Of a DNA stretch of 64,000 bases, positions 6,405-38,961 are shown one piece after another. Both the position numbers and the translations under genes were made by a program. The DNA is from an uncultured virus (IMG/VR IMGVR_UViG_3300020447_000005) (taxonomy: Duplodnaviria > Heunggongvirae > Uroviricota > Caudoviricetes): IMG/VR virus record IMGVR_UViG_3300020447_000005. One strand, given 5' to 3'. The notes under the pieces are model-generated. The model worked only from the letters and a program-made list of their open reading frames with translations, made no database searches and had not been told where the DNA came from. The first letter of the stretch is position 1. Each line of letters begins with the position of its first letter.

Positions 6405-7343
6405 CTAACTAAAGGTTGCCTTAGCCAAACCGCTGGTATGACCAATGGTTCCGCCTAGAGTCTCATAAGCAAAGAACTCAATCATGTACGCTTCACGACG
6501 AATGTACATAGTTGTGTCTTCCAAAATATAACTCTTACCAATAAACTTCGGATCTGCAAAGTGATACATCGTATTAGTCGTGACCAAGTTCTTCTTGATC
6601 GTGATAATCCACTTTACGCCCATGAACTCAGCAAGAGCCCAACCGTTACGCATAACCTCTTCACTCAAGTCACCGCCCATTTCGTTGCGACTGAACTTAG
6701 CCACTTCCTTAATGGTGATGTTGTTGAGAAGCACAACGTGAACTTCAAGGTTCGACGGAGTGTTAGGCATGATCTTCAGGCTGTCCCAAAGCGTGTCGCG
6801 GGTGATTCCACCAGCGATAGCTTCGTGCTGGACGACCTCTGACGTAGGAACAATACCGCCAGCAGAACCAACAGCAGTGTTAACCGCAGTGAGAAACTTA
6901 CCGTCTTCCTCTGCCAGCATGTCCTTGATAGCATTGTCGCTAAGGACCTGTCGGATATCCATGTACCAAGTACGAAGCTCATCAACGTCCTTCGTGAAGC
7001 GAGGCGTCACGATACGGTCGAAGCTCACCTTGTAGCGAGGTCCACGAATGTAAAGGTTAGTCGGAAGAGTCGCGAAAGGAATCGAGATGGCCGCAGGGCT
7101 ATCAGGTTCCTTGTCCACGATCTTGACCGGCTTATCTGTATCGACCTGTCGGTCGAGTTCATCATTACTGATGGGCAACGGCGGAATAATCCGTCGATAA
7201 AAGCCATCTTCACGCATCTTTGTGCGTGTGAAATCGTTAACAGCATCAACGGCTTGCTTCTCCAGAAGTGGATCTCTTGATGCCAGCTTCTCGAAGATTG
7301 CCTCATTGAGGAGTTTTGATTCCTCTTGAGTGGTAGCGGACAT
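6405..7343 (-). CDS. Major capsid protein (HK97-like fold)
   Basis: 312 aa with strong SD AAGGAGGT. Pattern R.KMREDGF.RRI.P...F.RI.TP.F.KDVDEL...KDM.AEED.KF resembles large-phage capsid proteins. Gene order is protease-scaffold-decoration-MCP. Confidence 0.75.
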   Translation of the reverse strand: MSATTQEESKLLNEAIFEKLASRDPLLEKQAVDAVNDFTRTKMREDGFYRRIIPPLPISNDELDRQVDTDKPVKIVDKEPDSPAAISIPFATLPTNLYIRGPRYKVSFDRIVTPRFTKDVDELRTWYMDIRQVLSDNAIKDMLAEEDGKFLTAVNTAVGSAGGIVPTSEVVQHEAIAGGITRDTLWDSLKIMPNTPSNLEVHVVLLNNITIKEVAKFSRNEMGGDLSEEVMRNGWALAEFMGVKWIITIKKNLVTTNTMYHFADPKFIGKSYILEDTTMYIRREAYMIEFFAYETLGGTIGHTSGLAKATFS

Positions 7344-15648: not shown

Positions 15649-15651
15649 TTA

Positions 15652-18255
15652 TTAGTTCCTTGCAGATTCCTCGAGACCAAGATCCGCGCTTCCTTCAAAC
15701 GGCGATTCAATCGTTTTCTCTTTAAGGAAAAGAGTAATGTCGCCCAGTGCTTCAAAGGAGTTTCGCAGGCTGTCTTCGAGTTCCGGCATGTCAGACTTAC
15801 CGTAACGATCCTCAAACTCTTCTTGATGCCAATAAAACAAGAATAGAATTCGACCTAAACTATTAAGCGCTTTCATCAAATCGCCAAGATAACGATCTAC
15901 TAAAGAATCCTGTCGAACTGCCTTTAAGAGGCCACCAATCATGCTTGTATCGAAAACTTCTTTCTGTCCCTCTTGTGCTGCTTGCTGAGCAGTTCCCATC
16001 GTCTTCTGGAAATCTTCAGCAGTGTAATTCTGCCAAGGATCCCACACGTTAGGATCTGTATTGCCAGCCATCATTTCCGGCACAATCTCCTGAGATTCTT
16101 GCGGAGATTGCGTTAATACCGGAGTCCTGCCGCCCAATGTTTCCATACCCATTTCTGGGGGGAGACTAGCGGGTGGAGCACCTGGCCCAGGCTGTAACGT
16201 ACTAAAAGCAGATTTAACTAAATTAGCTTTATCGCCAAAGCCAGGGGCATACTGAACACGATACACAGCGCCGTGTTTTCTTTCAGCGTACTGGAGCATA
16301 TCCTTCGCAGTCTTCTCCGAAAAACCATGCGTTCTAATAAGGTTTAAAAATGCAGATTTCTTACTCAACCAATCTGTCCCTGTTGCTGAAGAGATAGAAA
16401 CATCTGAGCCATTGTCATAAATCTTTAATCGTGCGGTTTTTTCATAAAAGAGAGTTTGAATATCTTCAATATTTCCAAATTGTATAGGAGATGGATCGCT
16501 ATGATCACCGTCGCCGCAACCACAAGGAATTAGGAGACTTCCTCCGGATTCGCTGTATGGCTTTTTAAGCTGTAAAAACTTAGCCGCTCCAGGTACACGC
16601 AACTCACCGCCAATCGCACGAAGCTTAGTACCAGCTTTGCCCTCAGCATCGACGCGTAAAATTGCCCCGTAAGGACTAGGGGAAGGGTCAAAACCACCGG
16701 GATAGTTACCATTCTCTACGCGAGGCTTTTGGACAATCCTTGTTTCGTTATAGTCAGGATTATTTTGAAAATCTACCTTGTAGACTCCGTCCCCATAATT
16801 ATCACGGACGACGAAAGGAACTGTGCTGCTATGGGTAGGAACAACAGCTATATAGGTGCCGCCGTCCTTTAACGAATCAGAGTCTGAAAGACCATCAAAC
16901 CAGTCATCCCACTCAGGTCGATCACCCTCTTGGTCAGCAAAAACATTACCTTGGTAACTGTTAAGCCACGCTTTGTTATCGCCATCTTCTAGCCGTACAG
17001 CTGTTACCATATCCTGTGCCCCGTTGTTCGACAGAGGATTAACAGCTACATACATTTTGCTAAAAGAACCGGGCTTCTCTAATACCCGGTACAGATTAGT
17101 TTCGTCAGGGTTGGATAATCGCATATCCACCTGAGTGTTATAAGCCTTACTGACTTCTTTGCCTTCACGATGATCTTTGATTAAAACCGTATCATTCATT
17201 AAACGCTCACGCTCAGCATCATCAAGCTCAGGTGTGTCGTTTACAGTTACATGCTCATACACATACATACGGAGCTTGCCAGATTTAATCGGATGATCTG
17301 GACGGTCGTCAATCTCTGGAATCAAAGACTTGCTTGATTTACTATAGCTTGGCGCTTTAGGTACAGACATCTTAGGCATAACACTGTTAGCCGAGTCCGT
17401 AGCATGCTTTTTTAATTGTTGTCCCCACCGGCTAAAACAATCATCGCCGTAGAATTTAGTAAACCCTTCGGCAACCCCTGCGAACTTTTGTGATAGATCA
17501 AAAGCAGCCTTCAACAAACCGTAATGCGTCGGAATAACTTTGTTAAGATCTAACTGCTGAGAGACAGAGGCTAAAGCCGCCTGATAAGGCTGTGCAACTA
17601 AAGAATCAATTGCTAACTTAGCCTCCGGGGAGGCTTCTTTGTATAAGCTACGTGCCGATCCAGTCTTTACCGCTGCGTACAAAGGAAGGAAAGGATGAGA
17701 CCATTTGTCATACCCTGCTTTACCCAAACCGGGAGACATGGAAAGTCTGCTAATGTTGGGTGTCAAACCGCCAAGGTCAAATGCATCTTGCGAAGAACCT
17801 TCGCCAAGAACATGCGGTTTCCGAGAAATTAGATAGTTAACCCAGTTCTCTTTCATCGGCACAAAGGCATCTTTGTTCTTTAGATAGAGAAGCTCGTGCC
17901 CCTTTAAATCGCCATTGAGAAAGAACACAGGAGCGTAAAGCCATTGGTCGCCCACCTGGAAACCAAATACACCTACCGCCTTTGTGTTATCGTCATTACG
18001 GTCAACAAGCTGGAACCCAACAATATAGTCCAACAAACGAGGCGCTTTATCTTTCAAATAAGCGTAGGCTAAGCTTGAAAATGCTTGTTCAAACTCAGTT
18101 TCGTTGCTGCCCCCTACATTAGCCGCCTTAAAAAGGCCGTCATTTACGTGACGTTTTAACGCTACTTTAAGTTGGGCCGGAGATGCATCGGAACGCCAAT
18201 GCGTTCCTTGAGCATTAACTGCTTCATACCGAATGGGAGTCATAATACCATCCAT
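15652..18255 (-). CDS. Large hypothetical head protein with K-x-A motifs
   Basis: 867 aa. FKAA, YKEA, KKHA, EKTA and VKSA appear to fall at domain boundaries. Confidence 0.65.
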   Translation of the reverse strand: MDGIMTPIRYEAVNAQGTHWRSDASPAQLKVALKRHVNDGLFKAANVGGSNETEFEQAFSSLAYAYLKDKAPRLLDYIVGFQLVDRNDDNTKAVGVFGFQVGDQWLYAPVFFLNGDLKGHELLYLKNKDAFVPMKENWVNYLISRKPHVLGEGSSQDAFDLGGLTPNISRLSMSPGLGKAGYDKWSHPFLPLYAAVKTGSARSLYKEASPEAKLAIDSLVAQPYQAALASVSQQLDLNKVIPTHYGLLKAAFDLSQKFAGVAEGFTKFYGDDCFSRWGQQLKKHATDSANSVMPKMSVPKAPSYSKSSKSLIPEIDDRPDHPIKSGKLRMYVYEHVTVNDTPELDDAERERLMNDTVLIKDHREGKEVSKAYNTQVDMRLSNPDETNLYRVLEKPGSFSKMYVAVNPLSNNGAQDMVTAVRLEDGDNKAWLNSYQGNVFADQEGDRPEWDDWFDGLSDSDSLKDGGTYIAVVPTHSSTVPFVVRDNYGDGVYKVDFQNNPDYNETRIVQKPRVENGNYPGGFDPSPSPYGAILRVDAEGKAGTKLRAIGGELRVPGAAKFLQLKKPYSESGGSLLIPCGCGDGDHSDPSPIQFGNIEDIQTLFYEKTARLKIYDNGSDVSISSATGTDWLSKKSAFLNLIRTHGFSEKTAKDMLQYAERKHGAVYRVQYAPGFGDKANLVKSAFSTLQPGPGAPPASLPPEMGMETLGGRTPVLTQSPQESQEIVPEMMAGNTDPNVWDPWQNYTAEDFQKTMGTAQQAAQEGQKEVFDTSMIGGLLKAVRQDSLVDRYLGDLMKALNSLGRILFLFYWHQEEFEDRYGKSDMPELEDSLRNSFEALGDITLFLKEKTIESPFEGSADLGLEESARN

Positions 18256-18271
18256 GGACTAATCCTTGTCG

Positions 18272-19459
18272 TCAATATCCTAACTCACGTAACTGCAATT
18301 CGCGACGTCTAGTGGCGCTAGGCCCTCCCCACGGAGAACCTGAACCTCCACCAGCCATAGAACCTAATCCAGAAGCACTAAGATACCGTCGTCGATCACT
18401 AATAGTTTTCTGTAGATCAGCAGCAGAAGGACGTTCTCTGGTAAACCAACCAGTCGTTCCTCCGTACTCCCCGCTACTTAATTCACTTCTAAGTTTCTCA
18501 ATCTTTGCCTTCGCCATAGCTTTTTCTACCATACGACGACCGGCTTCGTTACCTTCGTAAGGAGTATCACTCCAAGGCCATCTACCTTCAGGAGCGTCAG
18601 GGTATGTTCCACCCTCATAATCCGCACGTGCTTTTTCTAGCTCTGACCTTTTACCCTCTTGTAATGTTTTGTAACGAGTTCTCGCCTCTGTAAGCTCTCG
18701 TTGTTTTCGAACCGCTGCTGGACCAACTGCTTGAGGAGCGTATGTCTGACGTTTAACCCCAGCGGATGATGTTGTTGTCGTAGGATCACCGTACCCCACC
18801 GGGCTTGCATCAGGATCTCCAAACGGAAGAGAGGCTAAACTCTTTACGGGACTCCCCAGTGCATTAATAGCCGCTTGTGCAGCACCGACATTAGCAGGAT
18901 TAATAGCTTGTCGTTGATAGTCTAAACCACCTCGTCGCATCCCGCCTAGTTCGTCCTTATTGTTCCAACCGCCAAATGGTAATGTGGCCAAATCTTTGGC
19001 ACCCATAACACCAGTACCAAGTGCTCCTGCTCTAGCTAATGTGGATAGTAAACCCTGACCTCGTGTTGCTTTTGGGTCAACCAAATTAGGATGTACAGAA
19101 TGAGCAGCTCGCTGCACCGCTTGCGAAGTTCTGTTTGCACCACGAACAGCAAGAGTTTTTAGCGCGTCGGATGTAGTATTAGGAATAGTTTTGCCAGTAG
19201 GAGCAAAGGACTTCACGTCTAATGCGGGTCGCTTCCACTTTGGCTTCCCTAGTATTGCTTCGCCGACAGGGCCTCTCTTTGCTTTCCATGCACCCTTAGC
19301 CCCTTCCCACGCACCCTTTGCCCCCCTACCAATAGCGCCTTTATACTTGAGTAAATCTCGCCCAACACCAAATAACGTTTGCAATCCGATTGCTTCTTTT
19401 TCTAGCATAGAATGATTATGCCGGGCGGCTTTAGCAGCTAATTTAGAGACATCTGACAT
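18272..19459 (-). CDS. Basic Gly-rich internal virion protein candidate
   Basis: Start revised to MSDVSK (AAGGA upstream). SKLA and EKEA near the N-terminus. No Cys. Confidence 0.55.
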   Translation of the reverse strand: MSDVSKLAAKAARHNHSMLEKEAIGLQTLFGVGRDLLKYKGAIGRGAKGAWEGAKGAWKAKRGPVGEAILGKPKWKRPALDVKSFAPTGKTIPNTTSDALKTLAVRGANRTSQAVQRAAHSVHPNLVDPKATRGQGLLSTLARAGALGTGVMGAKDLATLPFGGWNNKDELGGMRRGGLDYQRQAINPANVGAAQAAINALGSPVKSLASLPFGDPDASPVGYGDPTTTTSSAGVKRQTYAPQAVGPAAVRKQRELTEARTRYKTLQEGKRSELEKARADYEGGTYPDAPEGRWPWSDTPYEGNEAGRRMVEKAMAKAKIEKLRSELSSGEYGGTTGWFTRERPSAADLQKTISDRRRYLSASGLGSMAGGGSGSPWGGPSATRRRELQLRELGY

Positions 19460-19596
19460 ATTGCGCGTCCTTGCACCACTTAATCTACTGTTAATCAATA
19501 GTTGCACGGAATTTCTAGTTTATCTGTTTTATATGCTTTTTTGCAACACCACTGGGTTATTATAACGTCAAACACTATCCTACAAACATCGCAAAG

Positions 19597-22494
19597 TTAC
19601 CGATAAACTCCTTCACGATCTTTTAAAGCTTGTTGATAGGCCTCTTCTTCATGACCGCCCTCAAACCACCCCCAGTTATCTCGATCATAACTGTCTAAAG
19701 AACGTTGAGGCTTGGGAGGCGCATTCTTTGCCCATATCTGAGAGGGATCCCAATTCTCTCGACGAGCTTTCTCTGCTTGATACTCAGGTTCCTCGTGGCC
19801 CCACTCAAACCAATTGGATTTACGATCATAATCTTCAAGAGGACGTTGGTTATGAGCATTATAAAATGCGTCACTCAAGCCGCCCAGCCTAGCCGTTGTA
19901 TTCTTACCTTCTGATAATGCTGTCAATGCGCCTTGTGGATTTAATCCTGCGGCTAAGGCCATTCCGCCTGCTGCCCCGCCATAGCCCTGCACCGCTTGAG
20001 TAAACCTTGGGCCAAAAAACGGAGTATTAAACAAACCGGGAAGCTGCTGCTGTGATTGCACACCTCCCTTTCGATAACCTTGCACACGTTGTGCAGGATT
20101 ATAAGGCTTCGCAACATTGCCAGTTATAAAACTACCGTCACTTAAATTTTGCTTTGCTGCGGGGACATTAACGGGCATCGGTTTTGGAGTATGTGGATTA
20201 GTCACGGGGGGAACACTCCCTGTATTTTGTGCGGGGGGAACTGTGTTCTGTGTATTACCTGAGGTACTTGTCTGAGACGGAGGTGTAATTGTAGCAGGAG
20301 GTGTATACGGATCTGGCTGAGGCGACGTGTCTAGAATATTCGAGGACTGCATCGATTCGGATATTTGATGCACCGGCGACCCAGGACGGGGGCCGGAATG
20401 CCCGTAAGTGTTTTGATAGTTCCTTAACTGTTCGTGTTGCCATTTTCTCTGTTGTAACTGTTTGCTCCGAGAAGGAGACAGGGAAGAATAACGATTCGGA
20501 TCGTAGGTAAAGTCTCCGTAGCTGTGAATACGATTCCACTCAGCATCTTGTGTATTTTGTGCGGGGGGAACTGTGTTCTGTGCTGTCTTAACTTCACCAA
20601 TTTCTTCAACAGGATACCCAGGACTAGGCGGTCTAACGATAGCTCCAGGAGCACGACCAAAATCTACACTACGCGAAATGCTGGGAACAAAACTAGTTCC
20701 ACGTTCTTCGCTTACCGCACCTCGCTGCGCGCCGGTCAATAAACTCTTCTTCAAACCAGAACCATAGAACCGCGTCAACCAATCCGGATCATGCTGTAAG
20801 TTAGACATACCCCGGATCATCTCAGGCTCAAATGGCGGCGGATCATTATGCACCGCAACTTCATCCACCCCAAAAGCATTGAACTCTGCCAACATCGAAG
20901 GTCGTATTTTTGTACCAATTGTATAGTGAAGCACAGGTTGTTCTAAATACTTACCTACTGCTTGTTTTGGCTTAACGCTTCTATGTCCCTCACGTGGCTT
21001 CCACTTATGTTCCAATGTGGAGTAAGGAACAACATCGTCAGGAACGTTGTCGCCGTATTCTTCTGTTAGACGAACATGGTTAATAAGCCCACGTGAGAGT
21101 ATTTCAATATTGCGGCGATGTGCGGAAAGATTAGCTCCTTCCATCGCCTCTTTCAAAGCCTTAACAAAATACTTCCGTCCGTCACCAATACCTTTATACT
21201 GTGTCACCAACGAAGGGTTAGGGAATCCCTCGCTAATAACATCTCCGGCTTCGACTTTATCGCCCTTCTTAACGTGGATATCGTACCCATCAGCAACGTA
21301 ATGCTGCTTATCGTTAACAGTGACGTATTTACCGCCAGCCGGTGCGTCTTCTATACGCTGTACAGTGCCATCTTCTGTTGTGTGAGCTGCACCACCCTTA
21401 AACGTCTTAGGTACTTGTATCAACTGGTTAATATACTTAAAGCCACTAACGGCCTTTTCTTCGCCTGCTACCCCGCCGCTGTGCTTTGCCGACAACTGTC
21501 CCTGACTCAAAGGTTCGCTCAAAGACTGCGCTGCCTGTAATCCAACCTGCGTGCCTCGCCCCGGCAAACGGCCTGTTTCTCGAACACCCACATCTCGTGC
21601 ATAAACGCCACCAGAGGGCGAACCGCCCACAAGCGGCGAACGGATAAGAATCTTATTCTTACCCAGTCGCTTTAAATGCTTTCGCACCTTCGGAGTAATT
21701 ACAGTGTTCTTCTCGTAAGGGCCAGTATCTATAGCTAGTAAAGCTCCCTCACTGTCTGCGTCCTCGGTATCAACCGGCATTCCACGTTTAATGCCACGTT
21801 GACCCTCGTCTGCATAATCCTTATCCGTAATCACTAATCGATGAGCTACTTGATTCAATTGTTTAGCTAAGAAACCCGCGTCTTGTGTGGCGAACTTCGT
21901 CGCTATAATTCCTTTGCGAGCCCCATACGAACCTGCCCAATACTCAGCAGGAGATAACCCCTCGGAATAACTTCTCGTTACTGGGATAGGCAATGGGTCA
22001 TCACGTTGATCGGCGTACAGTAAATCGCTACCCAGTAAACTTGACAAATTCATACGATTGCCACGAGTACCCGACAGAACTTGGAAAGCAAGAGGATTTT
22101 TGTCCTCTAAAGCCTCGGCCATGATTTCTGCCTGCTGAGGGGCCATTTCTGACCCGACTGCACGCACAATGAGTTCATTACGTTTTTTATCCGTAATATC
22201 ATCACGAGATAGAATTGCATCCATCTTGGCACGGACGCGTTCTCGAATACGATGACCGGCTTTAGATCGCTTTAAATGACGTAAACCAAAAGAGAAGCTA
22301 CCGCCCTCTTGCGCACCTTCACGACCTATATTATTTAATGCAAAAGAAATCTCGCGATAATCGTTTGGATACCGAGTAGCAACTTCATGCAAAACTTTTT
22401 TAAGCTCTTTCTTGTCTAATACACGATCGTAGTCCCGGAGATCTTCCGGAAGAGCTTCGTTTACAAAGAGTTGACCCACCGTAGCATTCAGCAT
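19597..22494 (-). CDS. rpoC: DNA-directed RNA polymerase beta'-like subunit, C-terminal half (bridge helix, trigger loop) with a low-complexity C-terminal extension
   Basis: ATVGQ (cf. TTVGR), SGTRG (SGARG), YGARKGIIATKFATQDAGFLAKQL (bridge helix) and AAQSLSEPLSQGQLSAKHSGG (trigger loop), plus RRNIEI (KHIEV). Confidence 0.93.
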   Translation of the reverse strand: MLNATVGQLFVNEALPEDLRDYDRVLDKKELKKVLHEVATRYPNDYREISFALNNIGREGAQEGGSFSFGLRHLKRSKAGHRIRERVRAKMDAILSRDDITDKKRNELIVRAVGSEMAPQQAEIMAEALEDKNPLAFQVLSGTRGNRMNLSSLLGSDLLYADQRDDPLPIPVTRSYSEGLSPAEYWAGSYGARKGIIATKFATQDAGFLAKQLNQVAHRLVITDKDYADEGQRGIKRGMPVDTEDADSEGALLAIDTGPYEKNTVITPKVRKHLKRLGKNKILIRSPLVGGSPSGGVYARDVGVRETGRLPGRGTQVGLQAAQSLSEPLSQGQLSAKHSGGVAGEEKAVSGFKYINQLIQVPKTFKGGAAHTTEDGTVQRIEDAPAGGKYVTVNDKQHYVADGYDIHVKKGDKVEAGDVISEGFPNPSLVTQYKGIGDGRKYFVKALKEAMEGANLSAHRRNIEILSRGLINHVRLTEEYGDNVPDDVVPYSTLEHKWKPREGHRSVKPKQAVGKYLEQPVLHYTIGTKIRPSMLAEFNAFGVDEVAVHNDPPPFEPEMIRGMSNLQHDPDWLTRFYGSGLKKSLLTGAQRGAVSEERGTSFVPSISRSVDFGRAPGAIVRPPSPGYPVEEIGEVKTAQNTVPPAQNTQDAEWNRIHSYGDFTYDPNRYSSLSPSRSKQLQQRKWQHEQLRNYQNTYGHSGPRPGSPVHQISESMQSSNILDTSPQPDPYTPPATITPPSQTSTSGNTQNTVPPAQNTGSVPPVTNPHTPKPMPVNVPAAKQNLSDGSFITGNVAKPYNPAQRVQGYRKGGVQSQQQLPGLFNTPFFGPRFTQAVQGYGGAAGGMALAAGLNPQGALTALSEGKNTTARLGGLSDAFYNAHNQRPLEDYDRKSNWFEWGHEEPEYQAEKARRENWDPSQIWAKNAPPKPQRSLDSYDRDNWGWFEGGHEEEAYQQALKDREGVYR
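20221..20582. repeat. 32-bp exact direct repeat (20221-20252 and 20551-20582) encoding QNTVPPAQNT
   Basis: tgtattttgtgcggggggaactgtgttctgtg occurs twice. Confidence 0.9.
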
Positions 22495-22508
22495 CTTGCT
22501 GCACCGCT

Positions 22509-22524
22509 TAAATTGTACTATTTA
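22509..22524 (-). promoter_or_regulatory. 16-bp TAAATAGTACAATTTA element upstream of the beta'-C gene
   Basis: 15/16 match to the 14934 element. Its TAA is also the stop codon of the upstream gene. Confidence 0.55.
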
Positions 22525-22923
22525 CTCATCGTCGTCATCGTCAACTGTGCCTGTCGGTCCCGAAAACAAGTCCGACAACTCTTCTTGATTTAACTCTTCC
22601 ACTTTGACGTTTTTTCCTCGGGAGGTTGCTTTCTTTTTAGTAGACTTTTTAGCTGCCTTCTTCTTGACGGGCTTCTTTTTTATTTTTGGAGTTTCACTTG
22701 TAGTTTCCTGTTCCGTAGCCTTCTTCTCCACAATAGGAGGAAGAGTTTTCGGTGTCTCCTGAAGAAGTTCGTCTACAATATCCGGTTCTGCGGCGGTTAC
22801 CGGTTCGGGTTTCGGAGAAGGTGGAGCTGCTGCTACTCTAGTCGCAGTACTTCGCTCCATACCCAGTTTTTTTCGCTCCGCTCGACTTCGAGGAATAACT
22901 GAATTAGGGTTGTTAGGATACAT
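22522..22923 (-). CDS. Lys/Pro-rich disordered hypothetical protein (histone H1-like Lys/Ala tract)
   Basis: KIKKKPVKKKAAKKSTKKKATSRGK followed by an acidic tail. Confidence 0.55.
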   Translation of the reverse strand: MYPNNPNSVIPRSRAERKKLGMERSTATRVAAAPPSPKPEPVTAAEPDIVDELLQETPKTLPPIVEKKATEQETTSETPKIKKKPVKKKAAKKSTKKKATSRGKNVKVEELNQEELSDLFSGPTGTVDDDDDE

Positions 22924-22931
22924 ATAAAACC

Positions 22932-23150
22932 TTATAGCTGTTTACAAATTACGGTGATGTCTAAACCAATGCTTTTTAATACTTCATTAAAGTCATCATC
23001 ATCCACATTAGCCAAAACTAAAACTCCTTGAGGTCCCCGCTCCGCTGCGATTTGCACTGGAGCCCCATTATCTCCCTTCACCACTACTTGGGAAGCGTTC
23101 AAAATAATAGGCTCGCTACCTATGCCGTCAGGAATAATTTCAAGCCGCAT
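22932..23150 (-). CDS. Small hypothetical protein
   Basis: 72 aa, coupled to the upstream stop. Confidence 0.55.
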   Translation of the reverse strand: MRLEIIPDGIGSEPIILNASQVVVKGDNGAPVQIAAERGPQGVLVLANVDDDDFNEVLKSIGLDITVICKQL

Positions 23151-23151
23151 A

Positions 23152-23847
23152 TTAAGTCCCTGCGGACATCATTTGCCAGAGCGCAGCAGCTTTATCCGCG
23201 TTTGACTGGTGTTCTGCGACAACGTCTTGTTGAACATCTACAGCACGGCCATTTTCCCAAGAACCCATTTTTTCAGGGGACGCAGGCATTGCCGCACCCA
23301 TCGGGGCAATAGGTTTAATAGCGCTTGCTTCGCCTCCGCCGCCTGCCATAGCACCAGCACCAGCCGAATTACCTTGGGCCATTGCGGTTAAATCCTCGGG
23401 AGTAGCCACCATATCAGCGGCAGGAATATGAATGCCCAAGGCATCAGAGATCTTAGCAAGAATCTTCTTTATCTGCATAATCTCAATATTGACATCAATC
23501 TTGGGCTTAATTTGACCCTCACCACCCATGCCGCCCCCCATGCCACCACCTTGTGCAGCCAAAGCTGCTTGCACAGCTTGGTCAATCATTGGTTGCATGG
23601 CAGCCATGGGGTCCATCGGAGGAGCACCACCCATAGCGGGGTCCATCGGAGGAGCACCGCCCATAGCGGGGTCCATCGGAGGACCACCTGGAGGAGGAGC
23701 GCCGCCCATCATACTAGGATCTCCACCCGTCATAGCAGGGTCGCCTGCTGCTACAAACGCTTGCTTCTCCTCATTTCTCGCATACTTCTGAACATTATCG
23801 AGCGCTAAGCCCACAAGTTCAGGATTAACACTTCCATAATTACCCAT
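23152..23847 (-). CDS. Met/Pro/Gly-rich hypothetical protein with K-x-A motifs
   Basis: AAGGAG SD. QKYA and EKQA motifs, GGAPPMDPAM repeats. Confidence 0.65.
   Translation of the reverse strand: MGNYGSVNPELVGLALDNVQKYARNEEKQAFVAAGDPAMTGGDPSMMGGAPPPGGPPMDPAMGGAPPMDPAMGGAPPMDPMAAMQPMIDQAVQAALAAQGGGMGGGMGGEGQIKPKIDVNIEIMQIKKILAKISDALGIHIPAADMVATPEDLTAMAQGNSAGAGAMAGGGGEASAIKPIAPMGAAMPASPEKMGSWENGRAVDVQQDVVAEHQSNADKAAALWQMMSAGT
23608..23683. repeat. 30-bp tandem repeat (about 2.5 copies) encoding GGAPPMDPAM
   Basis: ggggtccatcggaggagcaccRcccatagc repeated. Confidence 0.85.
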
Positions 23848-23878
23848 AGCTAGTTACTCCTTTAACTCTAGCAAGTCA

Positions 23879-26800
23879 TTACTTTTCTAGTACCTGAACT
23901 CGATCTGTTAAAGACAAATCTCCCCGATCATATGCTGTTCGAACGTCTGACATGGAACGGAATATCTTTCGCGATTTTTCACTTTTTCGCTTTGTCGCGT
24001 GCCATAAACCTCCAACATACTCGTTAGAGGGTGCATGTACCACCGACTTAAAATCGGAAGGGCTTAGTAAATTACGGCTCGGCAGTAAACGTTCAAAAGA
24101 TTCTTTTCTCGCCTCCTCTGTCGTAGGGACGTGATAATTCATCGCGTCTCCGTCAAAATCTGCATTAAAGCCCCCCACTATTAAAGGTGATACCTGTAAA
24201 GTATTACCTTTAGTCAATTGAGGTTTAAACGCCATGATGCCAAATTTATGTAACACAGGGGCACGATTAATGATAACAGGTCGGTGCTCCATTTCCTCTA
24301 CCAATGCATTACGCGCTAATTCAGACCTGTCCTTGATGTTCTGCATCGCTTGAGTAATTGGCATTCCTTTTCGTCGCAATCGTCGAACAACAAACTTCTG
24401 ATATACGTCAAAAGCTTTATCTTCAGGAAGACCTACCGAATCCATGTCTAAATTAGGGTTCGGCGATATGACAGCTCGACCTACATTATCCACCGTGCTG
24501 CCAATAAGTTTTCTTTGTACAGTACCAAACTTAGGACTACTGCCAAAAACCTCTTTTAGAATACCGCGAACTTGTTTATCTCGGGATTTTTGACTAATTG
24601 GATCGCCAAGGCCGGTAACCGCTTTAAAAGCGTTATAAACTGCCAATCTTTCGTCGCCAACAGCGTCCCCTACCGATTTCCGCATATCCTCTAAATTGCT
24701 ATTAGCCTCAAACAATTCTTTGTATAAATAGTTAGCGTCATTAACTAACGGCATATCATCGCCCATCGTACTCACAGGGCGAAACATAGGCGGCAAAACA
24801 GGAACTCGCTTTAACATCCAGTCAGAAGGATGAATACCTAACTTCTTGGCGCTTTTGAGATACCCTAACTTGCGGATAGCAGTATCGCGTTCAGTCCGGT
24901 TTCCGTTTTCAATTAATGAACGGGACTCAGCCAATGCTTTATTTAGATCTAGAGATGTTAACGCTTTATGCACTGCTTTAGGACCAGTACCATACCCAGG
25001 CAATTCATTCACGCCTGCTATAACATCCTCAAACCCTTTTTTAGTTAAACCCAACGTTCTACGAATAGGTTCTTCCATTACTGGGTTAGGCATTGGCTCA
25101 GCGAGTTTAATGGCTGACCATTGATTACCATTATGTCCGCCAGTTAAAGCAGGATCAAATAAACCTCCTGCTACCGGGCGTAACCCCTCGTTCCAATTAA
25201 CGCCGCCAGAATTCTTTAACTCACGTGACCCTACTAAAGTATCAACGTCATTATTCGTTAACGCCATAATGTGTGTTTGCGTGCCCGATCGCTGTACGTT
25301 TACACCCGCAGCTTTTAACTGACTTACAAACTTTTTATACACCATTGGAACTTTAGGATCTTTCGGGTTATACCCCGACATAAACTGCAACCAATAGTCT
25401 TCATTGCGTTGGCCGCGAATAGCGCCTACATCGCGTAACGTCTCAGTAGCTCCATGAGATAGAAGAGCGTTAGTATCTAATAGAGCAACTCGCTTAGAGC
25501 CAGTTTCGCCGCCCTTAGCCGGAGTATCCTCCATTGAGTATGCGCCGCCTCCGCGAGCTTGTCCTTTTGATTCTGCTGTGTGATGTAGCTTCATAAAGAA
25601 ACGATTGCCTGTCGCAATGTCCTTTATTTTCTTATCCCGAGTAGGGTCGTAAACAGCATCAAGATCGGACATACCTTCACGACGTAACTCGTCATACACC
25701 CATTGAGACATATCGCGGCTGCTATCAAAATCTTGGATTTTAATAGGCGAGCCTCGCTTAGCCGCTATTTTGCCTAAATACAACTCAGCCATCTGAGCTG
25801 GATTAGTACGGCTAATTACTCCGAGTGGATTGAGGAGAACCTCATAGGGCTTACCATCCGTGTCGTGCGGCATCTGGTCGTCGGAGATGACGTCAGCAAT
25901 GACGCCTTTATCTCCGTATCTACCAGAGAGCTTGTCACCGACTTGCATGGAGCTGACGGTTTTGGTAACGACAACCGGCCCCTTCTTCCCCAGAACAACG
26001 TCGGTAACAACCCCGGTATCGTGATGATCCCATAAGATACTTGCGTCTGCATATCCGGACTGTCCTTTCTTATGCACTTTATGTTTAGATCCTTCGCGAC
26101 GTCTTATACCAAGTATAAGCGGATCTCCGTGCTTCACAACAGTTCCGGGTTTTATGACCCCATTATCGCCAAACCGAGACAACTCTTCTTTATTATACTT
26201 CCCAGGAAATAAACTAATGTAGGAATTCTTTCCTGATTTTGTCTTTTTATCAAATTCAAGATCGTATTGATACATGTGTTCGGAAGACATGCGATTTGCA
26301 AAGCCTTCTGATATGACAATTGCGTCTTCAAAATTCTTTCCCTGCCAAGCCAAATAAGCTACACGAGCATTTTTACCTAATGCTGTTGTTCCGCCTTTAT
26401 CCGTAAAATTGGATCTGCTAAGAAGCTGTCCTTTCTTAAACGGCATCCCTGCTTCAACAGTAGGAGTTTGGTGCAAAAATGTTTTTCTGTTGAAAGGAAA
26501 ATTATTATACAACTCTAAGTCTTCCTTTGTACCGTCATCATATCGAACTTTAATGCTATCGTCAGAAATGCTTAATACTTCGCCTCCCGACTTGGCATGC
26601 ATACTACCCATTTTAGAGCTGTACTCTTCTTCGTAACTACGTTTACCTTCAGTTCCTGGTATAGCCGATTGAACTAAAGGAGCTTCAGGATCAATCAAAG
26701 GTAAAGCTTGTGTAGACATACGACTCGCCATGACAAGTCGTTGTCCTTTCATCATCCCTTTGAGTGGGACAATGTTAGCCAACGGACTAAGTGCATCCTC

Positions 26801-28303
26801 AAAAGAAGGTAGCACTAAATCAATATCTTTTTTCTTAGCCCACCCCATCTTGCCCGCCTGCATAACTGCAACCCGCTTCCCAGCTTTATCCATACTCTCC
26901 GGAAAAGCGACAGTTAAATCAGACACGTCCTGAGGTGTTCGCCAAACTTTTTTAGATGTCCTAGGGTCAATGAACTGTGTGTATATTTTGCCGTCTTTAC
27001 CTTTTTGAGTACTCCGCGACATATACAGATCAACGCCAGTTCTAAACGACTCAGGAGTACGTAGCGGATCAATGTAACCCATGTGACTAGGCTGCACGTC
27101 GCGTGCTTCGTCAGGGATCGCATCAAGGGTGGGGATGCCTCCCTCACCAAGGCGACTGACCGAATAAAGCTTGTCATAGATCTCAGCAGGATTAATTTCC
27201 TCTAACGGCTGCCCTAAACCAGAAGACAACAACGTTGCCTCTATTTGTGATTTCAAAGCTGATGACGGCATACCCGATAAATTGCCCTTATTAGCCGCTT
27301 TCCACAACAAACCTCTTCTTATGCCGCCATAATCTTTAGCCACACGCTCTGAAAACAAATCCTCAGGACCCAGGAACTTTTGATAAGGAAGTGCGTCCCG
27401 ATTATCTACGTCTGCCTCGCCTTTGGATACATTCACAAGTTTCTTAGTGATATCCAATACTGCATCTAAAGTTAACCCTTTGTAAGGTTTCCCCAGTGTC
27501 CTACTTGTCACTTCAGGATCAAGTGTCATGTTTTTAAACTTATGCACTATCGCCTTACGAGCATTATTATCGTGCTCCTCTAAATCTTTTTCACTTAAAA
27601 ATTTCTCTTGTAACTTTGTGTGTGCGGACGCTTCGTCCTGAGGAAAGTTCGCCGCGTAAATGGCATCTCCCCACGTCTCTTTAAGTTGCTTGGGAGTGGC
27701 CCCCATTGTTTTGACGAGAGGCATAAGCGGTATCTTGGCCTGACCAGCTCGGAGATAGAAGATGCCTGTTTCTGGGTTAAGATAATAGCGGTGCGAAAGA
27801 CCTTTCCCAGGCATAATGTTGGCATGCGCTTCGATTTCTCCGTTATCCCGAACTCTAGTAAACACCCCCGGCCTTAGTCGTTGCTGATTGCGTAACGTAT
27901 ACTCACTACCTTTATGAATATATGTCCCACGCTGTGTAAGATGCGGCACAGTCATTAAAACAGATTTCTTACTGTCAACAACGTTGCCCGTTTCATTATC
28001 GGACAGCTCCCACGTGCCACGAAGACGACGACCTCTAGTCTCTCCGCTTAGCACTGCTGCCTTTTGATCTTTTAAAGAAAGCTTATCGGGGTCTTGATAA
28101 TGAACGTCACGTAACGCTAACGAATAATTAGCGTTCGTAACCGGTTCTAAACCTTGAACCGCCTCTTGTACGCGAGTATAGATATTACGTCGCGCCGCAG
28201 TTGTGTCGCCCACCCCTCGGCGTTCTTCCTTAGAGGCAACTGGCTGCAACGGAGAAAGTAACGACTTAGGCGACGAGTCTAAAATATTCATAGACATCGC
28301 CAT
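23879..28303 (-). CDS. rpoB: DNA-directed RNA polymerase: beta subunit fused to the N-terminal half of beta' (carries the catalytic NADFDGD)
   Basis: Beta motifs RDVQPSHMGYIDPLRTPE, NFEDAI, GDKLSGRYGDKGV, LNPLGVISRTN and MKLHH. Beta' motifs VPVLPPMFRP, NRAPVLH and FNADFDGDAM (NADFDGD at 24146-24166). Confidence 0.95.
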   Translation of the reverse strand: MAMSMNILDSSPKSLLSPLQPVASKEERRGVGDTTAARRNIYTRVQEAVQGLEPVTNANYSLALRDVHYQDPDKLSLKDQKAAVLSGETRGRRLRGTWELSDNETGNVVDSKKSVLMTVPHLTQRGTYIHKGSEYTLRNQQRLRPGVFTRVRDNGEIEAHANIMPGKGLSHRYYLNPETGIFYLRAGQAKIPLMPLVKTMGATPKQLKETWGDAIYAANFPQDEASAHTKLQEKFLSEKDLEEHDNNARKAIVHKFKNMTLDPEVTSRTLGKPYKGLTLDAVLDITKKLVNVSKGEADVDNRDALPYQKFLGPEDLFSERVAKDYGGIRRGLLWKAANKGNLSGMPSSALKSQIEATLLSSGLGQPLEEINPAEIYDKLYSVSRLGEGGIPTLDAIPDEARDVQPSHMGYIDPLRTPESFRTGVDLYMSRSTQKGKDGKIYTQFIDPRTSKKVWRTPQDVSDLTVAFPESMDKAGKRVAVMQAGKMGWAKKKDIDLVLPSFEDALSPLANIVPLKGMMKGQRLVMASRMSTQALPLIDPEAPLVQSAIPGTEGKRSYEEEYSSKMGSMHAKSGGEVLSISDDSIKVRYDDGTKEDLELYNNFPFNRKTFLHQTPTVEAGMPFKKGQLLSRSNFTDKGGTTALGKNARVAYLAWQGKNFEDAIVISEGFANRMSSEHMYQYDLEFDKKTKSGKNSYISLFPGKYNKEELSRFGDNGVIKPGTVVKHGDPLILGIRRREGSKHKVHKKGQSGYADASILWDHHDTGVVTDVVLGKKGPVVVTKTVSSMQVGDKLSGRYGDKGVIADVISDDQMPHDTDGKPYEVLLNPLGVISRTNPAQMAELYLGKIAAKRGSPIKIQDFDSSRDMSQWVYDELRREGMSDLDAVYDPTRDKKIKDIATGNRFFMKLHHTAESKGQARGGGAYSMEDTPAKGGETGSKRVALLDTNALLSHGATETLRDVGAIRGQRNEDYWLQFMSGYNPKDPKVPMVYKKFVSQLKAAGVNVQRSGTQTHIMALTNNDVDTLVGSRELKNSGGVNWNEGLRPVAGGLFDPALTGGHNGNQWSAIKLAEPMPNPVMEEPIRRTLGLTKKGFEDVIAGVNELPGYGTGPKAVHKALTSLDLNKALAESRSLIENGNRTERDTAIRKLGYLKSAKKLGIHPSDWMLKRVPVLPPMFRPVSTMGDDMPLVNDANYLYKELFEANSNLEDMRKSVGDAVGDERLAVYNAFKAVTGLGDPISQKSRDKQVRGILKEVFGSSPKFGTVQRKLIGSTVDNVGRAVISPNPNLDMDSVGLPEDKAFDVYQKFVVRRLRRKGMPITQAMQNIKDRSELARNALVEEMEHRPVIINRAPVLHKFGIMAFKPQLTKGNTLQVSPLIVGGFNADFDGDAMNYHVPTTEEARKESFERLLPSRNLLSPSDFKSVVHAPSNEYVGGLWHATKRKSEKSRKIFRSMSDVRTAYDRGDLSLTDRVQVLEK

Positions 28304-28307
28304 TCAA

Positions 28308-30002
28308 TTACTCCTCCTCCTCATCGATAGGTGTAGGAACTGCGTACAGTTCAGCTGGACGCGACTGCTGTTGTTTTAGTGCACGACTGCGTTGAGCTTT
28401 CTCTAAGATTTTACCGCGACTACCTCTATCCGCTAACCCTTTGACAAGCAGATAACCTAAAATAGAGCTGGGAATGGCGTAAGTCGCGTAAGCCCCTAAA
28501 GCACGCCCTCGTGTGTCAGGGCTTACGATACTATCTAAATCAAGAGCTTCTTTATTCATCTTGTTATATAGCTCGTCTAATGCCACGCCTAACTCGGAAT
28601 CGCTTCCTCGTTTGTACTGCGAGACTAGCGCCTCTTGAAATTCATTGCGAGACTCATCCACTTCATCGTCAATCTCTTGACGACGTCTTTTGTCTAATAT
28701 GTGATCAATTAACTTCCATCCCCCGTAGCCTCCAAGAGCGCCAGCGCCAAGCATAGAAGGCATGTACCACCACAAACCGGGCTTAGAAGTCGGCCCAGGT
28801 TTAGGCATATCTATCGCTTGTTTATCAGCGCTATATTTTCGGAATGAGAACCCGTTGTTATCTTCCCCTTCTTGACGAGCCTGCTCAGCTCTTTGCTCCA
28901 AAACTTCTATTTCCTCGTCTTCTTTGCTTGCCCGTTCTCCCGGCGACTTACCGAACAACGCCTTAGTTGCTTTATTACCCAGGACACCGCCTCCAATACC
29001 GCCAGCAAGTAAACCAGCAAGTGCCCCAATACCCTGCGACCTAGAACTAGACTTAGTTCCCCTTAATTTCGCAATTAAATTAGCTACCCCAACACCGCCC
29101 CCAGCACCCAACAAGCTTCCCACCGTAGCGCCAGCTCCAGTACCAAGACCGCGCGTCCCGTGATGCAGCATATTTGGAAGAACTTCGCCCTTAGGGGCTG
29201 TCCCTGCGCCGTACCCCGCACCAATACCGCCGCCTAGTAACATTGCCGGAGTAAAGGCTTGCTTGTCACGAGCTGCCTTAAAGGGCTGATTCAACCTTAC
29301 TTTCGACCGATCGTAAGCCCGCTGCGCACTATCTACCCCTTGTTGCCCCGCAGCACGTGTTTGATTTCCCGCGTTCCACGCTTGACCGGCTTGCTGCTTG
29401 CCCTGTCTATGACCGCCACGTGCAAAACCACTTACATAACCTCCTGCTGCCGTAACTGGCGCAACCATATCCTGACCGAGTCCTTTCCACCAGGACCCAG
29501 TATTTGCCATTTGCTTATCTCCCAAAGTCTGTTGCGCAGCCTCCCTCCTGTCATAATTTTTACCGTACTGCGATGCAGCCTGTTGCGCTCCTGCTGTACC
29601 GTGCGGCACCAAATTTTTCGTTCGAGCCCCCATTTGTCCAAATGTCTTAGTTGGACCTGAAGTCCCGCCACCAAACGTTTTATTGTATACACCCTTGAAA
29701 AACTCAGCTTCCTTCTCTTCTCCGTTTTCGTCTTTAAAAGAAGGACGATAAGGGACAGGAAGAGGAGCAACACCAGGGCGAGTGCTTAATTTTTTACTGC
29801 TTCGTGTCAACAGATTCCACAATCCTTGCCCGCCACGAGCCGTGCCTGCTACGCCAGCACCCAACAAAGCGGTATTTAAAATGTCTCGCATAGCTTCGCT
29901 ACGCAATTGCTTTTGAAGCTGTGTTTGCATATCAGCAATACTTGACATGCCTTTCTTTTCTTGAACTTTTGCAATAACATGCTTTGCTTTTTTGCTGTCC
30001 AT
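28308..30002 (-). CDS. Glycine-zipper internal virion polyprotein candidate
   Basis: Several Gly-rich hydrophobic segments separated by EKEA, DKQA, DKQA and NKEA. No Cys. Confidence 0.6.
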   Translation of the reverse strand: MDSKKAKHVIAKVQEKKGMSSIADMQTQLQKQLRSEAMRDILNTALLGAGVAGTARGGQGLWNLLTRSSKKLSTRPGVAPLPVPYRPSFKDENGEEKEAEFFKGVYNKTFGGGTSGPTKTFGQMGARTKNLVPHGTAGAQQAASQYGKNYDRREAAQQTLGDKQMANTGSWWKGLGQDMVAPVTAAGGYVSGFARGGHRQGKQQAGQAWNAGNQTRAAGQQGVDSAQRAYDRSKVRLNQPFKAARDKQAFTPAMLLGGGIGAGYGAGTAPKGEVLPNMLHHGTRGLGTGAGATVGSLLGAGGGVGVANLIAKLRGTKSSSRSQGIGALAGLLAGGIGGGVLGNKATKALFGKSPGERASKEDEEIEVLEQRAEQARQEGEDNNGFSFRKYSADKQAIDMPKPGPTSKPGLWWYMPSMLGAGALGGYGGWKLIDHILDKRRRQEIDDEVDESRNEFQEALVSQYKRGSDSELGVALDELYNKMNKEALDLDSIVSPDTRGRALGAYATYAIPSSILGYLLVKGLADRGSRGKILEKAQRSRALKQQQSRPAELYAVPTPIDEEEE

Positions 30003-30008
30003 AGCTAT

Positions 30009-30380
30009 TTAGCTCCTAGGCAATGTTGCTTTCGTTGGCTGACCGTCTTCAAGGAAATACTCCAACCATTCCATGTAAACGTGATGATGTTTATCGTCAT
30101 CTTCTCGCCAACGTTCGATGAAAACAAGGTGAAACCATCCGTTGGCCACCCCGTCCATCACTTCTAAATACTGTTTGTTCTGTTTATCGTCGCCCGTGTA
30201 GAACATTGAGTTCTTGGGGTCTGCAACTCGAACTAACCTATCCTCAAACTCCTCGTCACGAAGGAGTGGTGCCTGTGTACCACGAAACGGTAATCCATCT
30301 AAATCTGCTCGTCCCCAAAAAAGATTACCACGTCCATTACCTTCTGTTTTGTTAACAAACTTAATCAAGTTATTTGGCAT
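30009..30380 (-). CDS. Hypothetical protein
   Basis: 123 aa with a GGGGA SD. Confidence 0.65.
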   Translation of the reverse strand: MPNNLIKFVNKTEGNGRGNLFWGRADLDGLPFRGTQAPLLRDEEFEDRLVRVADPKNSMFYTGDDKQNKQYLEVMDGVANGWFHLVFIERWREDDDKHHHVYMEWLEYFLEDGQPTKATLPRS

Positions 30381-30389
30381 AGTTCCCCA

Positions 30390-30824
30390 CTACAGATATA
30401 TACCGCCGCTAGATTTACGACGGTCTCGATATGCTCTTAGAGCTTTCGATTGTCGAAGTCTATCGGCTTGACGTCTATACTCGTCGATTAACTCCTGCTT
30501 TTTAACATCATCCACGTCTTCTTCGTCAACGTCTGTCATCTTAGACATGCCGTAACCAGCTACACCACCTAATGCCGCAGGACCAAATATTGCAGCACTT
30601 GTTCCTAAATCCAACCCTTTTTGAAGAACAGGCTTTGCAAGTCCTGCTGCTCCTCTGAGAAGGTCTTTAAGAATTCCGTAGCCAGGAATGTCCGCCTGCT
30701 TCTCAAATACATCTAGCTGATCCGAAGCAGTCTTAACGCGAGAGAGGGCCTCCTCCGTACTAATACCCTCCTCAACACATCGAGTTAGAAAGCCAGCTTT
30801 AAAAGATTCTAGTCCTGAGAGCAT
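30390..30824 (-). CDS. Small glycine-zipper protein with N-terminal pro-segment (FKAGFL...EKQA)
   Basis: VKTA and EKQA motifs, followed by PAALGGVAGYG. Confidence 0.6.
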   Translation of the reverse strand: MLSGLESFKAGFLTRCVEEGISTEEALSRVKTASDQLDVFEKQADIPGYGILKDLLRGAAGLAKPVLQKGLDLGTSAAIFGPAALGGVAGYGMSKMTDVDEEDVDDVKKQELIDEYRRQADRLRQSKALRAYRDRRKSSGGIYL

Positions 30825-30836
30825 CCTTGCTATCTC

Positions 30837-31220: not shown

Positions 31221-31223
31221 AGT

Positions 31224-31239
31224 TAAATTCTACTATTTA
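31224..31239 (-). promoter_or_regulatory. 16-bp TAAATAGTAGAATTTA element
   Basis: Lies 3 nt upstream of the ATG at 31220. Confidence 0.6.
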
Positions 31240-31241
31240 GA

Positions 31242-31667: not shown

Positions 31668-31682
31668 TTTAGTAACTCCTTT

Positions 31683-32750: not shown

Positions 32751-32850
32751 GTTACGTCCCAACACCGGTAAAAATATTTCTACCTCGTAATAATAACATA
32801 AAAAGTACTGAAACCGTTACGCTATTTACTACTTAGCTCTTAAAGCCCCT

Positions 32851-38754: not shown

Positions 38755-38961
38755 TCAATCGTTAGTAACGTTCAGCAAATACCAAGTAGCAATCTCAGTC
38801 TTTGAATGCACGTTCAATTTTTTTCGAATACGAGCGGCATAGGTTTTAATAGTCTCATAACCGAGACTTAACTCCACAGCAATCTCACGGTACTTCTTTC
38901 CTTTAACTATCAAACGTATTACATCTAATTCACGATCACTTAAAGTAATATCAGTAGCCAT
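38755..38961 (-). CDS. Stand-alone LuxR/GerE-type HTH transcription regulator
   Basis: LSDRELDVIRLIVKGKKYREIAVELSLGYETIKTYAARIRKKLNV. Confidence 0.9.
   Translation of the reverse strand: MATDITLSDRELDVIRLIVKGKKYREIAVELSLGYETIKTYAARIRKKLNVHSKTEIATWYLLNVTND

Follow-up and report, generated by a model that had tools for sequence, protein, structure and literature searches.

We will describe an RNA polymerase (RNAP) encoded in a stretch of DNA of 64,000 nucleotides (nt) from an uncultured marine virus of the class Caudoviricetes (IMG/VR record IMGVR_UViG_3300020447_000005). The whole stretch will be called the window. Two of its genes divide the large subunits of a bacterial-type multisubunit RNAP in the following way: the first one encodes beta joined in frame to the N-terminal part of beta' (beta'-N), the second one encodes the remainder of beta' (beta'-C). 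We demonstrate this layout, its collinearity with bacterial beta and beta', the presence of the catalytic motifs and the conservation of both junction and split across a large phage family. Our best explanation, which we consider very probable, is that the two chains form the alpha-less catalytic core of a phage RNAP, which would be made together with the structural genes, probably packaged in the virion and directed by a sigma-like factor. The features of the region are the following (ORF, open reading frame; aa, amino acids):

23879..28303, minus strand: beta::beta'-N fusion gene (chain 1), 1474 aa with an ATG start; Pfam, matches to beta and beta' chains in the PDB, NCBIfam
25295..28303, minus strand: beta portion of the fusion, residues 1-1003, with the C-terminal end FVSQLKAAGVNV; alignments with rpoB PRK00405 and 8syi_C
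25277..25294, minus strand: linker QRSGTQ, residues 1004-1009, from the C-terminus of beta to the N-terminal strand of beta'; motif coordinates
23882..25276, minus strand: beta'-N portion, residues 1010-1474, with the end ...DRVQVLEK; profile, motif and fold matches; its internal order is N-terminal strand, GGLFD, TGGHNGNQW (in place of the zinc ribbon), clamp helices, NADFDGD
23152..23847, minus strand: intervening ORF, 231 aa
22932..23150, minus strand: intervening ORF, 72 aa
22522..22923, minus strand: intervening ORF, 133 aa
19597..22494, minus strand: beta'-C gene (chain 2), 965 aa in all; Pfam Rpb1_5
20590..22494, minus strand: conserved RNAP part of beta'-C, residues 1 to ~635; Rpb1_5, 7vpd_D, rpoC_TIGR
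19597..20589, minus strand: low-complexity tail of beta'-C, ~330 aa; translation, no family match

In a preliminary description of this region the 1474-aa ORF had been read as all of beta followed by beta' up to the motifs NADFDGD and PSNEYVGGLW, with the remainder of beta' in a gene of its own, three ORFs downstream, and with both double-psi barrels in one chain. The domain matches agree with this reading on each point. In chain 1 Pfam finds RNA_pol_Rpb2_3 at residues 367-425 and Rpb2_6 at 602-924 (E 3e-51), followed in the beta' part by Rpb1_1 at 1155-1210 and Rpb1_2 at 1326-1402 (E 6e-27). In the 965-aa chain it finds Rpb1_5 at 179-477 (E 1e-17), which together with the ORF map and rpoC_TIGR places the rest of beta' there. 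From this distribution of domains it follows that the first chain contains both double-psi barrels and the second one the bridge-helix and trigger-loop module. The alignment with the NCBIfam model rpoB PRK00405 pairs residues 246-1004 of chain 1 with positions 295-1093 of a profile of 1096, so that beta extends to its natural C-terminus. A search of the PDB gives a similar picture: residues 41-1048 of the cyanobacterial beta 8syi_C align with 53-997 of chain 1.

The catalytic motifs are intact. The lysine motif of beta, GDKLSGRYGDKG, is found at residues 789-800 of chain 1, NADFDGD at 1380-1386 and PSNEYVGGLW at 1425-1434. The Mg-binding motif NADFDGD is therefore carried by the fusion protein and is absent from the free piece of beta'. 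The latter begins with MLNATVGQLF and contributes the bridge helix (residues 191-213) and the trigger loop with its His (321-341).

The junction between beta and beta' can be located with precision. The motif LKAAGVNV occupies residues 996-1003 (nt 25295-25318), whereas THIMALT has its first residue at 1010. A family profile, built from the window sequence and 31 IMG/VR relatives, maps beta' residues ~25-54 of three bacterial enzymes to ~1028-1056 of chain 1; this HMMER domain is weak when taken alone, but collinear. The strong match with beta' picks up again in the same profile at beta' residue ~150. Such a profile is needed at this place: the 151-aa junction piece alone, compared with the PDB by phmmer, gave no match at E-values up to 10. 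Since the end of beta and the start of beta' are fixed by the motifs and the profile, the linker is just the hexapeptide QRSGTQ, which falls inside the interval of about 25260-25310 originally proposed for it. Further on, ~95 residues of beta' which include the N-terminal zinc ribbon are swapped for ~30 residues (TGGHNGNQW...).

An AlphaFold2 model covers residues 900-1474 with a mean predicted local distance difference test score (pLDDT) of 74.4. Its top fold matches are cyanobacterial gamma and plastid RpoC1 chains (E about 5e-29). A hairpin of two strands is predicted across the linker (E102-107 and E110-115 of the model, pLDDT 72-82). In folded bacterial RNAP the C-terminus of beta and the N-terminus of beta' are adjacent.

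The two genes are collinear with a single beta', as is apparent in several alignments. In rpoC_TIGR, residues 1089-1472 of chain 1 correspond to profile positions 145-534 and residues 2-482 of chain 2 to positions 548-1050; ~13 profile positions are lost at the split. When compared with the clostridial beta' 8i23_D, chain 1 ends at its residue 562 and chain 2 starts at 578. The PHROGs family phrog_25354 (beta', 1216 positions) pairs its positions 170-540 with 1105-1471 of chain 1 and 615-1103 with 25-495 of chain 2. In the PDB search beta'-C aligns with residues 659-1168 of the beta' chain 7vpd_D. Taken with PRK00405, these alignments confirm the collinearity with bacterial RpoB and RpoC that had been noticed at the outset. 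The cut itself lies ~90 residues past the NADFDGD loop, at about position 552 of the 619-position gamma model. Residues 1-22 of chain 2 correspond to the end of gamma, and position 4 of rpoC2_cyan aligns at residue 23.

Beyond its conserved part, beta'-C has a tail rich in P, G, S, Q and A. It contains NTVPPAQNT twice and two NW..GHEE..Y motifs at its end. Tails of 278-822 aa are also present in the ten closest loci examined (L003, L004, L006, L008-L012, L053 and L055). They are rich in P, A, G, S and Q, nearly cysteine-free, and some of them have NWFGSGGHKFRD-like motifs. There is no BLAST similarity between one tail and another. The tail is absent from locus L005, from the 50%-identity clade and from the cultured phages Arash and D69, which are introduced below. 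It is a clade-specific, fast-evolving sequence of low complexity. We also considered whether the 411-aa ORF which comes after beta'-C, or the tail of the window itself, could be a homologue of the long tails of the relatives. This was rejected: no BLAST match was better than E 0.4.

The same organization is found in many other phages. Related loci were compared by tblastn: 65 come from IMG/VR, and Salmonella phage Arash and Vibrio phage D69 were added to them. A single tblastn segment runs across residues 1000-1100 in 67/67 loci. A HMMER scan with residues 850-1474 gave 8145 proteins at E <= 0.001, from which we took the best 150 cluster representatives (50% identity), all with E <1e-167. Every one of these 150 has the C-terminal part of beta and beta'-N on one protein. 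The linker has 6 residues in 143 of them, 7 in five, and is ~440 residues longer in the other two. The C-terminus of the fusion is within about 3 residues of that of the window in 135 of the 150. A search of phage collections for the same fusion and split had been suggested in the preliminary description: the outcome is positive for all of these loci and for the fusion in all of these representatives. Judged from these matches, the layout is that of a large phage family which includes cultured phages, it is not unique to the window. Near-identical copies of the junction region of the window are present in marine metagenomes of several studies. Contigs of two runs (X4 and X5) from two independent studies cross the junction without gaps, at 24700-25445 and 24700-25396, with 0 and 1 base differences. 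A piece from a further run (X7) has <31 letters on one side of the junction and was not counted as bridging. The runs listed include no RNA data set with this region.

Many loci have insertions of 1-2.3 kb inside both RNAP genes (L007, L008, L012, L018, L023-L025, L052-L056, L059, L060 and L064). The insertion sites recur: in chain 1 near residues 368, 419-434, 608-613, 793-833 and 934-941, in chain 2 near residues 204-210 and 326-335. The insertions are most likely inteins or homing elements. Among the best 150 representatives, 105 have >1700 aa, with lengths up to 3350 aa. The insertions and the long representatives indicate that inteins are frequent in the Arash-type RNAP family. The two genes of the window are free of such insertions.

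A peculiarity of the window enzyme is the total absence of cysteine: there is none in the 2439 residues of its two chains, against an average of 1.34% in the other ORFs. Both zinc sites of beta' are therefore gone. The same feature extends to the immediate neighbours, since every ORF of at least 100 aa within 18272-30380 on the minus strand is cysteine-free (the 411-aa ORF, beta'-C, the 133-aa and 231-aa ORFs, the fusion, and ORFs of 564 and 123 aa). Most ORFs of the other half, in contrast, have 1-4% cysteine. Across loci, 47/64 fusions and 52/61 beta'-C genes have no cysteine in their aligned parts. Exactly four cysteines are found in five beta'-C genes: Arash gp216 (L071), D69 VPHD69_0264 (L002), L059, L060 and L066. 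We have mapped them in Arash and D69, where they form the canonical Zn2 site (C...C...CxxC); L059, L060 and L066 probably keep this site as well. The corresponding positions in the beta'-C of the window, mapped against Arash and D69, are Y227, G290, Y298 and D301. The loss of the N-terminal zinc ribbon looks family-wide. The loss of Zn2 is a trait of the clade of the window, derived within the family, because Arash and D69 keep the site; for the same reason the association with virions that was reported for Arash does not depend on it.

We have also searched for accessory subunits. In the window ORFs scanned there is no alpha, no omega and no full sigma domain, as had been stated in the preliminary description. 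That statement has to be modified for sigma-like folds in general, since one small ORF matches Sigma70_r4_2:

38755..38961, minus strand: stand-alone helix-turn-helix ORF of GerE/LuxR type, 68 aa; Pfam GerE E 1e-16, Sigma70_r4_2 29 bits, above the cut-off

This ORF lies ~10.5 kb upstream of the fusion, and small ORFs of the GerE type are found ~11 kb upstream in the relatives G001 and G004. It is a candidate for a phage transcription factor or a minimal sigma-4-like protein. Five relatives, three of them at least 94% complete, were checked in the same way. The alpha domain PF01193 is found in 0/5 of them and in 14/14 controls; a platform equivalent to the alpha dimer was recognised neither in these five relatives nor in the window ORFs scanned. 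Each relative has one beta' barrel locus, which corresponds to a single RNAP set, and Sigma70_r2 is present in 2/5.

The neighbouring genes of the window have an order on the minus strand which is collinear with Arash gp206 to gp234:

15652..18255, minus strand: 867-aa gene, weak homologue of Arash gp218 (tblastn E 2e-6 and 2e-5), placed after beta'-C in most loci
528-aa gene: matches Arash gp222 (E 6e-27)
6405..7343, minus strand: major capsid protein homologue, 312 aa; 30% identity with Arash gp226 over 310 aa (E 1e-36), weak PHROG major-head match
3229-4176: 315-aa gene, weak match to Arash gp233 (E 1e-4)
284-aa gene: matches Arash gp234 (E 8e-9)

Gp218 is described as a 'structural protein' of Arash, with 1149 spectra in its virion proteome (PMC10585845). 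With a major capsid homologue downstream, the RNAP genes stand at the front of a block of structural genes. The genes are tightly packed: between 7999 and 32766 there is just one intergenic gap of at least 35 nt. An original claim that the RNAP is found among head genes is correct for the downstream side, where the head genes are; on the upstream side the neighbour (28308-30002) is not a recognisable portal. We had considered this 564-aa ORF as a portal candidate and rejected it: it has no similarity to the Arash portal and no match in Pfam, PHROG or NCBIfam. Its Atlas model is poor (predicted template modelling score 0.25) and no match reaches 0.9. The relatives are viral contigs of 157-225 kb, two of them with terminal repeats.

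The three ORFs between the RNAP genes have different features. The 231-aa ORF is cysteine-free, has GGAPPMDPAM repeats and a conserved middle segment; 22 distinct homologues are found between the two RNAP genes of related loci, and it has no match in Pfam, PHROG or NCBIfam. The 72-aa ORF is also conserved, with 15 distinct homologues in related loci. The 133-aa ORF is lysine-rich and highly charged, and tblastn gives no match for it in any related locus. Neither of these last two has a family match in Pfam, PHROG and further domain scans. The idea that the three are remnants of homing endonucleases was rejected: they have no family matches, and two of them are conserved low-complexity or acidic proteins. 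Loci L040, L046, L047 and L049 have, between the fusion and beta'-C (~14400-15900 of each locus), a gene with 33-34% identity to the Arash helicase gp217. In Arash itself this gene comes after beta'-C and its product was detected in virions; a search of the 64-kb window gave no homologue.

Other regions of the window may be mentioned. A large sugar-modification cluster occupies 38978-63951 on the minus strand. It has several family-2 glycosyltransferases, sulfotransferase-like domains, NAD-dependent epimerases/dehydratases, a dTDP-4-dehydrorhamnose 3,5-epimerase, a formyltransferase domain, a DegT-type aminotransferase and a 790-aa protein which combines tetratricopeptide repeats with glycosyltransferase and sulfotransferase domains. 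At 51603-57878 (minus strand) there is a protein of 2091 aa with five Laminin_G_3 (concanavalin-like lectin) and six Kre9/KNH-like Ig matches, Big_7 domains and a weak beta-helix match: it is probably a fibre or decoration protein. A 180-aa ORF at 36400-36942 (minus strand) has a SET (lysine methyltransferase) domain (Pfam E 1.7e-7). It lies just beyond the ribonucleotide reductase gene (33346-35325).

Some explanations would remove the fusion or the split altogether. Either of them might be an error of assembly or sequencing, such as a lost stop, a frameshift or a false stop in beta'; we found nothing in favour of this. A stop or frameshift at the junction had been named in the preliminary description as a possible objection; it does not apply, since independent contigs bridge the junction without indels. 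The recurrence of the junction in every locus and every one of the best 150 representatives, a C-terminus fixed within a few residues and the conserved genes between the two halves leave such an error with practically no chance. A cellular rpoBC operon, the other objection raised there, or a recently captured piece of one, is just as hard to believe in. It is true that the top matches outside the family are bacterial beta and beta'. However the identity to bacterial subunits is low, with 207-353 bits against cut-offs of 801-5372, and the neighbours are phage genes: homologues of the capsid and of virion proteins collinear with Arash, in a family of long viral contigs. No ribosomal-protein or other rpoBC-operon neighbours were detected among the window ORFs scanned. 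It might also be thought that a split intein, recoding or the like brings the two pieces of beta' together again, after translation or transcription, so that the working enzyme would be one beta-beta' chain like that of Helicobacter. The insertions and the long representatives indicate that inteins are evidently widespread in the family. But RNAP homology reaches to ~3 residues from the end of chain 1 and starts again at residue 2 of chain 2, so there is no room for the halves of a split intein. Three ORFs, two of them conserved, lie between the genes, and the window chains have no cysteine; the nucleophile required at splice junctions is, in most inteins, a Cys, Ser or Thr. We consider a rejoined chain very improbable.

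The explanation which we prefer is that of an alpha-less two-chain core. Chain 1 would hold the active site, formed between its two barrels; chain 2 would dock on chain 1 and supply the elements for translocation and catalysis (bridge helix and trigger loop). The covalent tether between beta and beta'-N may take over the assembly role of the alpha dimer, which the family lacks. The enzyme would be co-expressed with the structural genes and enter the virion, so as to transcribe the early genes after ejection, as the Arash proteome suggests; initiation would be directed by a phage sigma-like factor. For the phage of the window, packaging is proposed by analogy: in the Arash virion proteome Gp206, the homologue of chain 1, is the most detected protein with 3516 spectra, above the major capsid protein (1333), Gp216, the homologue of chain 2, is the fifth (1210), and the sigma factor Gp10 is also present (PMC10585845).

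A different possibility is that the two-chain RNAP exists but does not belong to the virion: it would be an intracellular polymerase of middle or late infection, and its detection in Arash particles would be due to carry-over. The particles were purified on a sucrose gradient only, and the authors themselves name the carry-over of abundant enzymes as an alternative; the same virion table also has ribonucleotide reductases, RNA ligases, DNA helicases and a DNA primase (PMC10585845). No recognisable portal adjoins the RNAP genes of the window. There is one RNAP set per genome, so the same enzyme either serves all phases of infection or shares the work with the host RNAP. On the other side stand the number of Gp206 and Gp216 spectra, the position of the genes in a tightly packed co-directional block which reaches the capsid gene, and the absence of cysteine in the RNAP and its immediate neighbours but not in the rest of the window. 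We find an intracellular role of this kind rather unlikely, although it is a more serious competitor than those discussed in the previous paragraph.

Besides the purification of Arash, the other enzymes in its table and the lack of a portal-like neighbour, several observations weigh against an alpha-less packaged enzyme. Activity, assembly and packaging in the phage of the window are predictions. NCBIfam scores are far under the curated cut-offs: 280 and 268 bits against 896 and 801 for rpoB, 207 and 183 against 963.5 for rpoC. The link between a cysteine-free protein and packaging is weakened, since Arash and D69 keep the four-cysteine Zn2 site. A full sigma is absent from the 64-kb window and Sigma70_r2 was missed in 3/5 relatives. 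Finally, transcription signals are not above chance at 17500-33500: there are 23 sigma-70-type promoters with 19.1 +/- 5.2 expected and 18 intrinsic terminators with 15.0 +/- 4.4 expected. There is no recurrent intergenic k-mer either, the commonest 8-mers being found in 3/20 gaps.

To our knowledge every cellular multisubunit RNAP needs an alpha-type platform, and the only well-studied exceptions are the highly diverged enzymes of jumbo phages. The family of the window can be aligned residue by residue with bacterial beta and beta', yet it has neither alpha nor the N-terminal zinc ribbon. It is a natural experiment on the minimal needs for assembling and folding a two-barrel RNAP, and its cultured members (Arash and the Vibrio phages) make bench experiments on these questions possible. 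Should packaging and ejection of the enzyme be real, virion-borne multisubunit RNAPs would extend beyond the phiKZ-like phages. A wider proposal may be advanced tentatively, and we would not give it even chances. The family could be a third independent design of phage multisubunit RNAP, in which the tether turns the strand pairing of beta and beta' into a hairpin and replaces the alpha platform. In the clade of the window the loss of zinc and cysteine might permit packing, threading through the tail, refolding and host-independent early transcription in non-nucleus-forming phages of ~200 kb. The disordered tail of beta'-C, with 280-820 aa, might be a handle for packaging or ejection, or else a recruitment platform, analogous in position to the C-terminal domain of RNA polymerase II.

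We will now compare this enzyme with known systems. The layout is common in phage sequence data, but we found no published description of it in full-text literature searches. Its closest known counterparts are the Arash-type RNAPs, which share with the window the junction, the C-terminal cut and a separate beta'-C downstream. Arash gp206 (1525 aa; OQ632216.1) and D69 VPHD69_0261 (1527 aa) match window residues 12-1471 in one segment, with 29-31% identity; the same genes as the Arash pair are present in Vibrio phages D69, D148 and D181. Both Arash and D69 have beta'-C downstream (606 and 609 aa), followed by a gp218-like gene and then by the capsid gene. In both the N-terminal zinc ribbon of beta' is absent and the whole fusion has 1-2 cysteines. 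They differ from the window by keeping the Zn2 site and by the absence of the long tail of beta'-C. In Arash a portal is also encoded two genes upstream, and a helicase gene directly follows beta'-C; neither was found at the corresponding places of the window. In the Arash paper and records gp206 and gp216 are called plain beta and beta', and the main text has no word starting with 'fus' (PMC10585845).

The mReC phages (Weinheimer and Aylward 2020, PMC7481178) resemble the phage of the window: they are metagenomic tailed phages, often aquatic, with recognisable beta and beta'. However in 43/43 rows of a part of Supplementary Dataset 2 beta (999-1487 aa) and beta' (887-1391 aa) are separate proteins. 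A member of this type would be expected to have NADxDGD on its separate beta', whereas in the window NADFDGD is on the fusion. The mReC filter accepts beta' matches of at least 800 aa, and the main text mentions a fusion for crAssphage only (PMC7481178).

The RNAPs of jumbo phages (phiKZ/AR9-type) are alpha-less, have beta' cut after the same barrel and include one set which is packaged in the virion (PMC7598289). The preliminary description had stated that phiKZ-like RNAPs are split differently: this does not hold for the cut of beta', but it does for beta, which is intact and fused in the window. In phiKZ/AR9-type enzymes beta is in two or three pieces, none of them fused to beta', whereas in the window it is one uninterrupted segment. 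These phages have two paralogous sets and no recognisable sigma; in the family of the window we find one set (5/5 relatives) and sigma domains in 2/5. In PHROGs the similarity to bacterial subunits is far stronger than that to jumbo-phage families (3e-69 against 1e-23, the latter weak). The passages on fusion and split in a review of jumbo phages (PMC7598289) and in Iyer et al. 2021 (PMC7824862) do not describe the layout.

At the other end we find cellular enzymes. Cyanobacteria and plastids have beta' cut after the catalytic double-psi barrel, into gamma or RpoC1 and RpoC2, and the gamma and RpoC2 models align to the two pieces of the window. However cyanobacterial gamma is free of beta and is cut elsewhere, whereas its equivalent in the window is fused to beta and cut at ~552/619. 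Since both jumbo phages and cyanobacteria cut beta' nearby, this cut is a recurrent solution: the unusual part is the fusion to an intact beta. For the fusion the parallel is RpoBC of Helicobacter and Wolbachia (NF007172 and NF011417), where the C-terminus of beta is also in frame with the N-terminus of beta'. These two models are the top NCBIfam matches of chain 1, with 353 and 297 bits against cut-offs of 5372 and 4632. In these bacteria the whole of beta' is included in one chain of ~2850-2900 aa, whereas chain 1 of the window stops at position 534 of 1147 in rpoC_TIGR; the cellular enzymes use alpha and omega. The window RNAP combines a fusion in the style of Helicobacter with a cut in the style of cyanobacteria, both at fixed positions.

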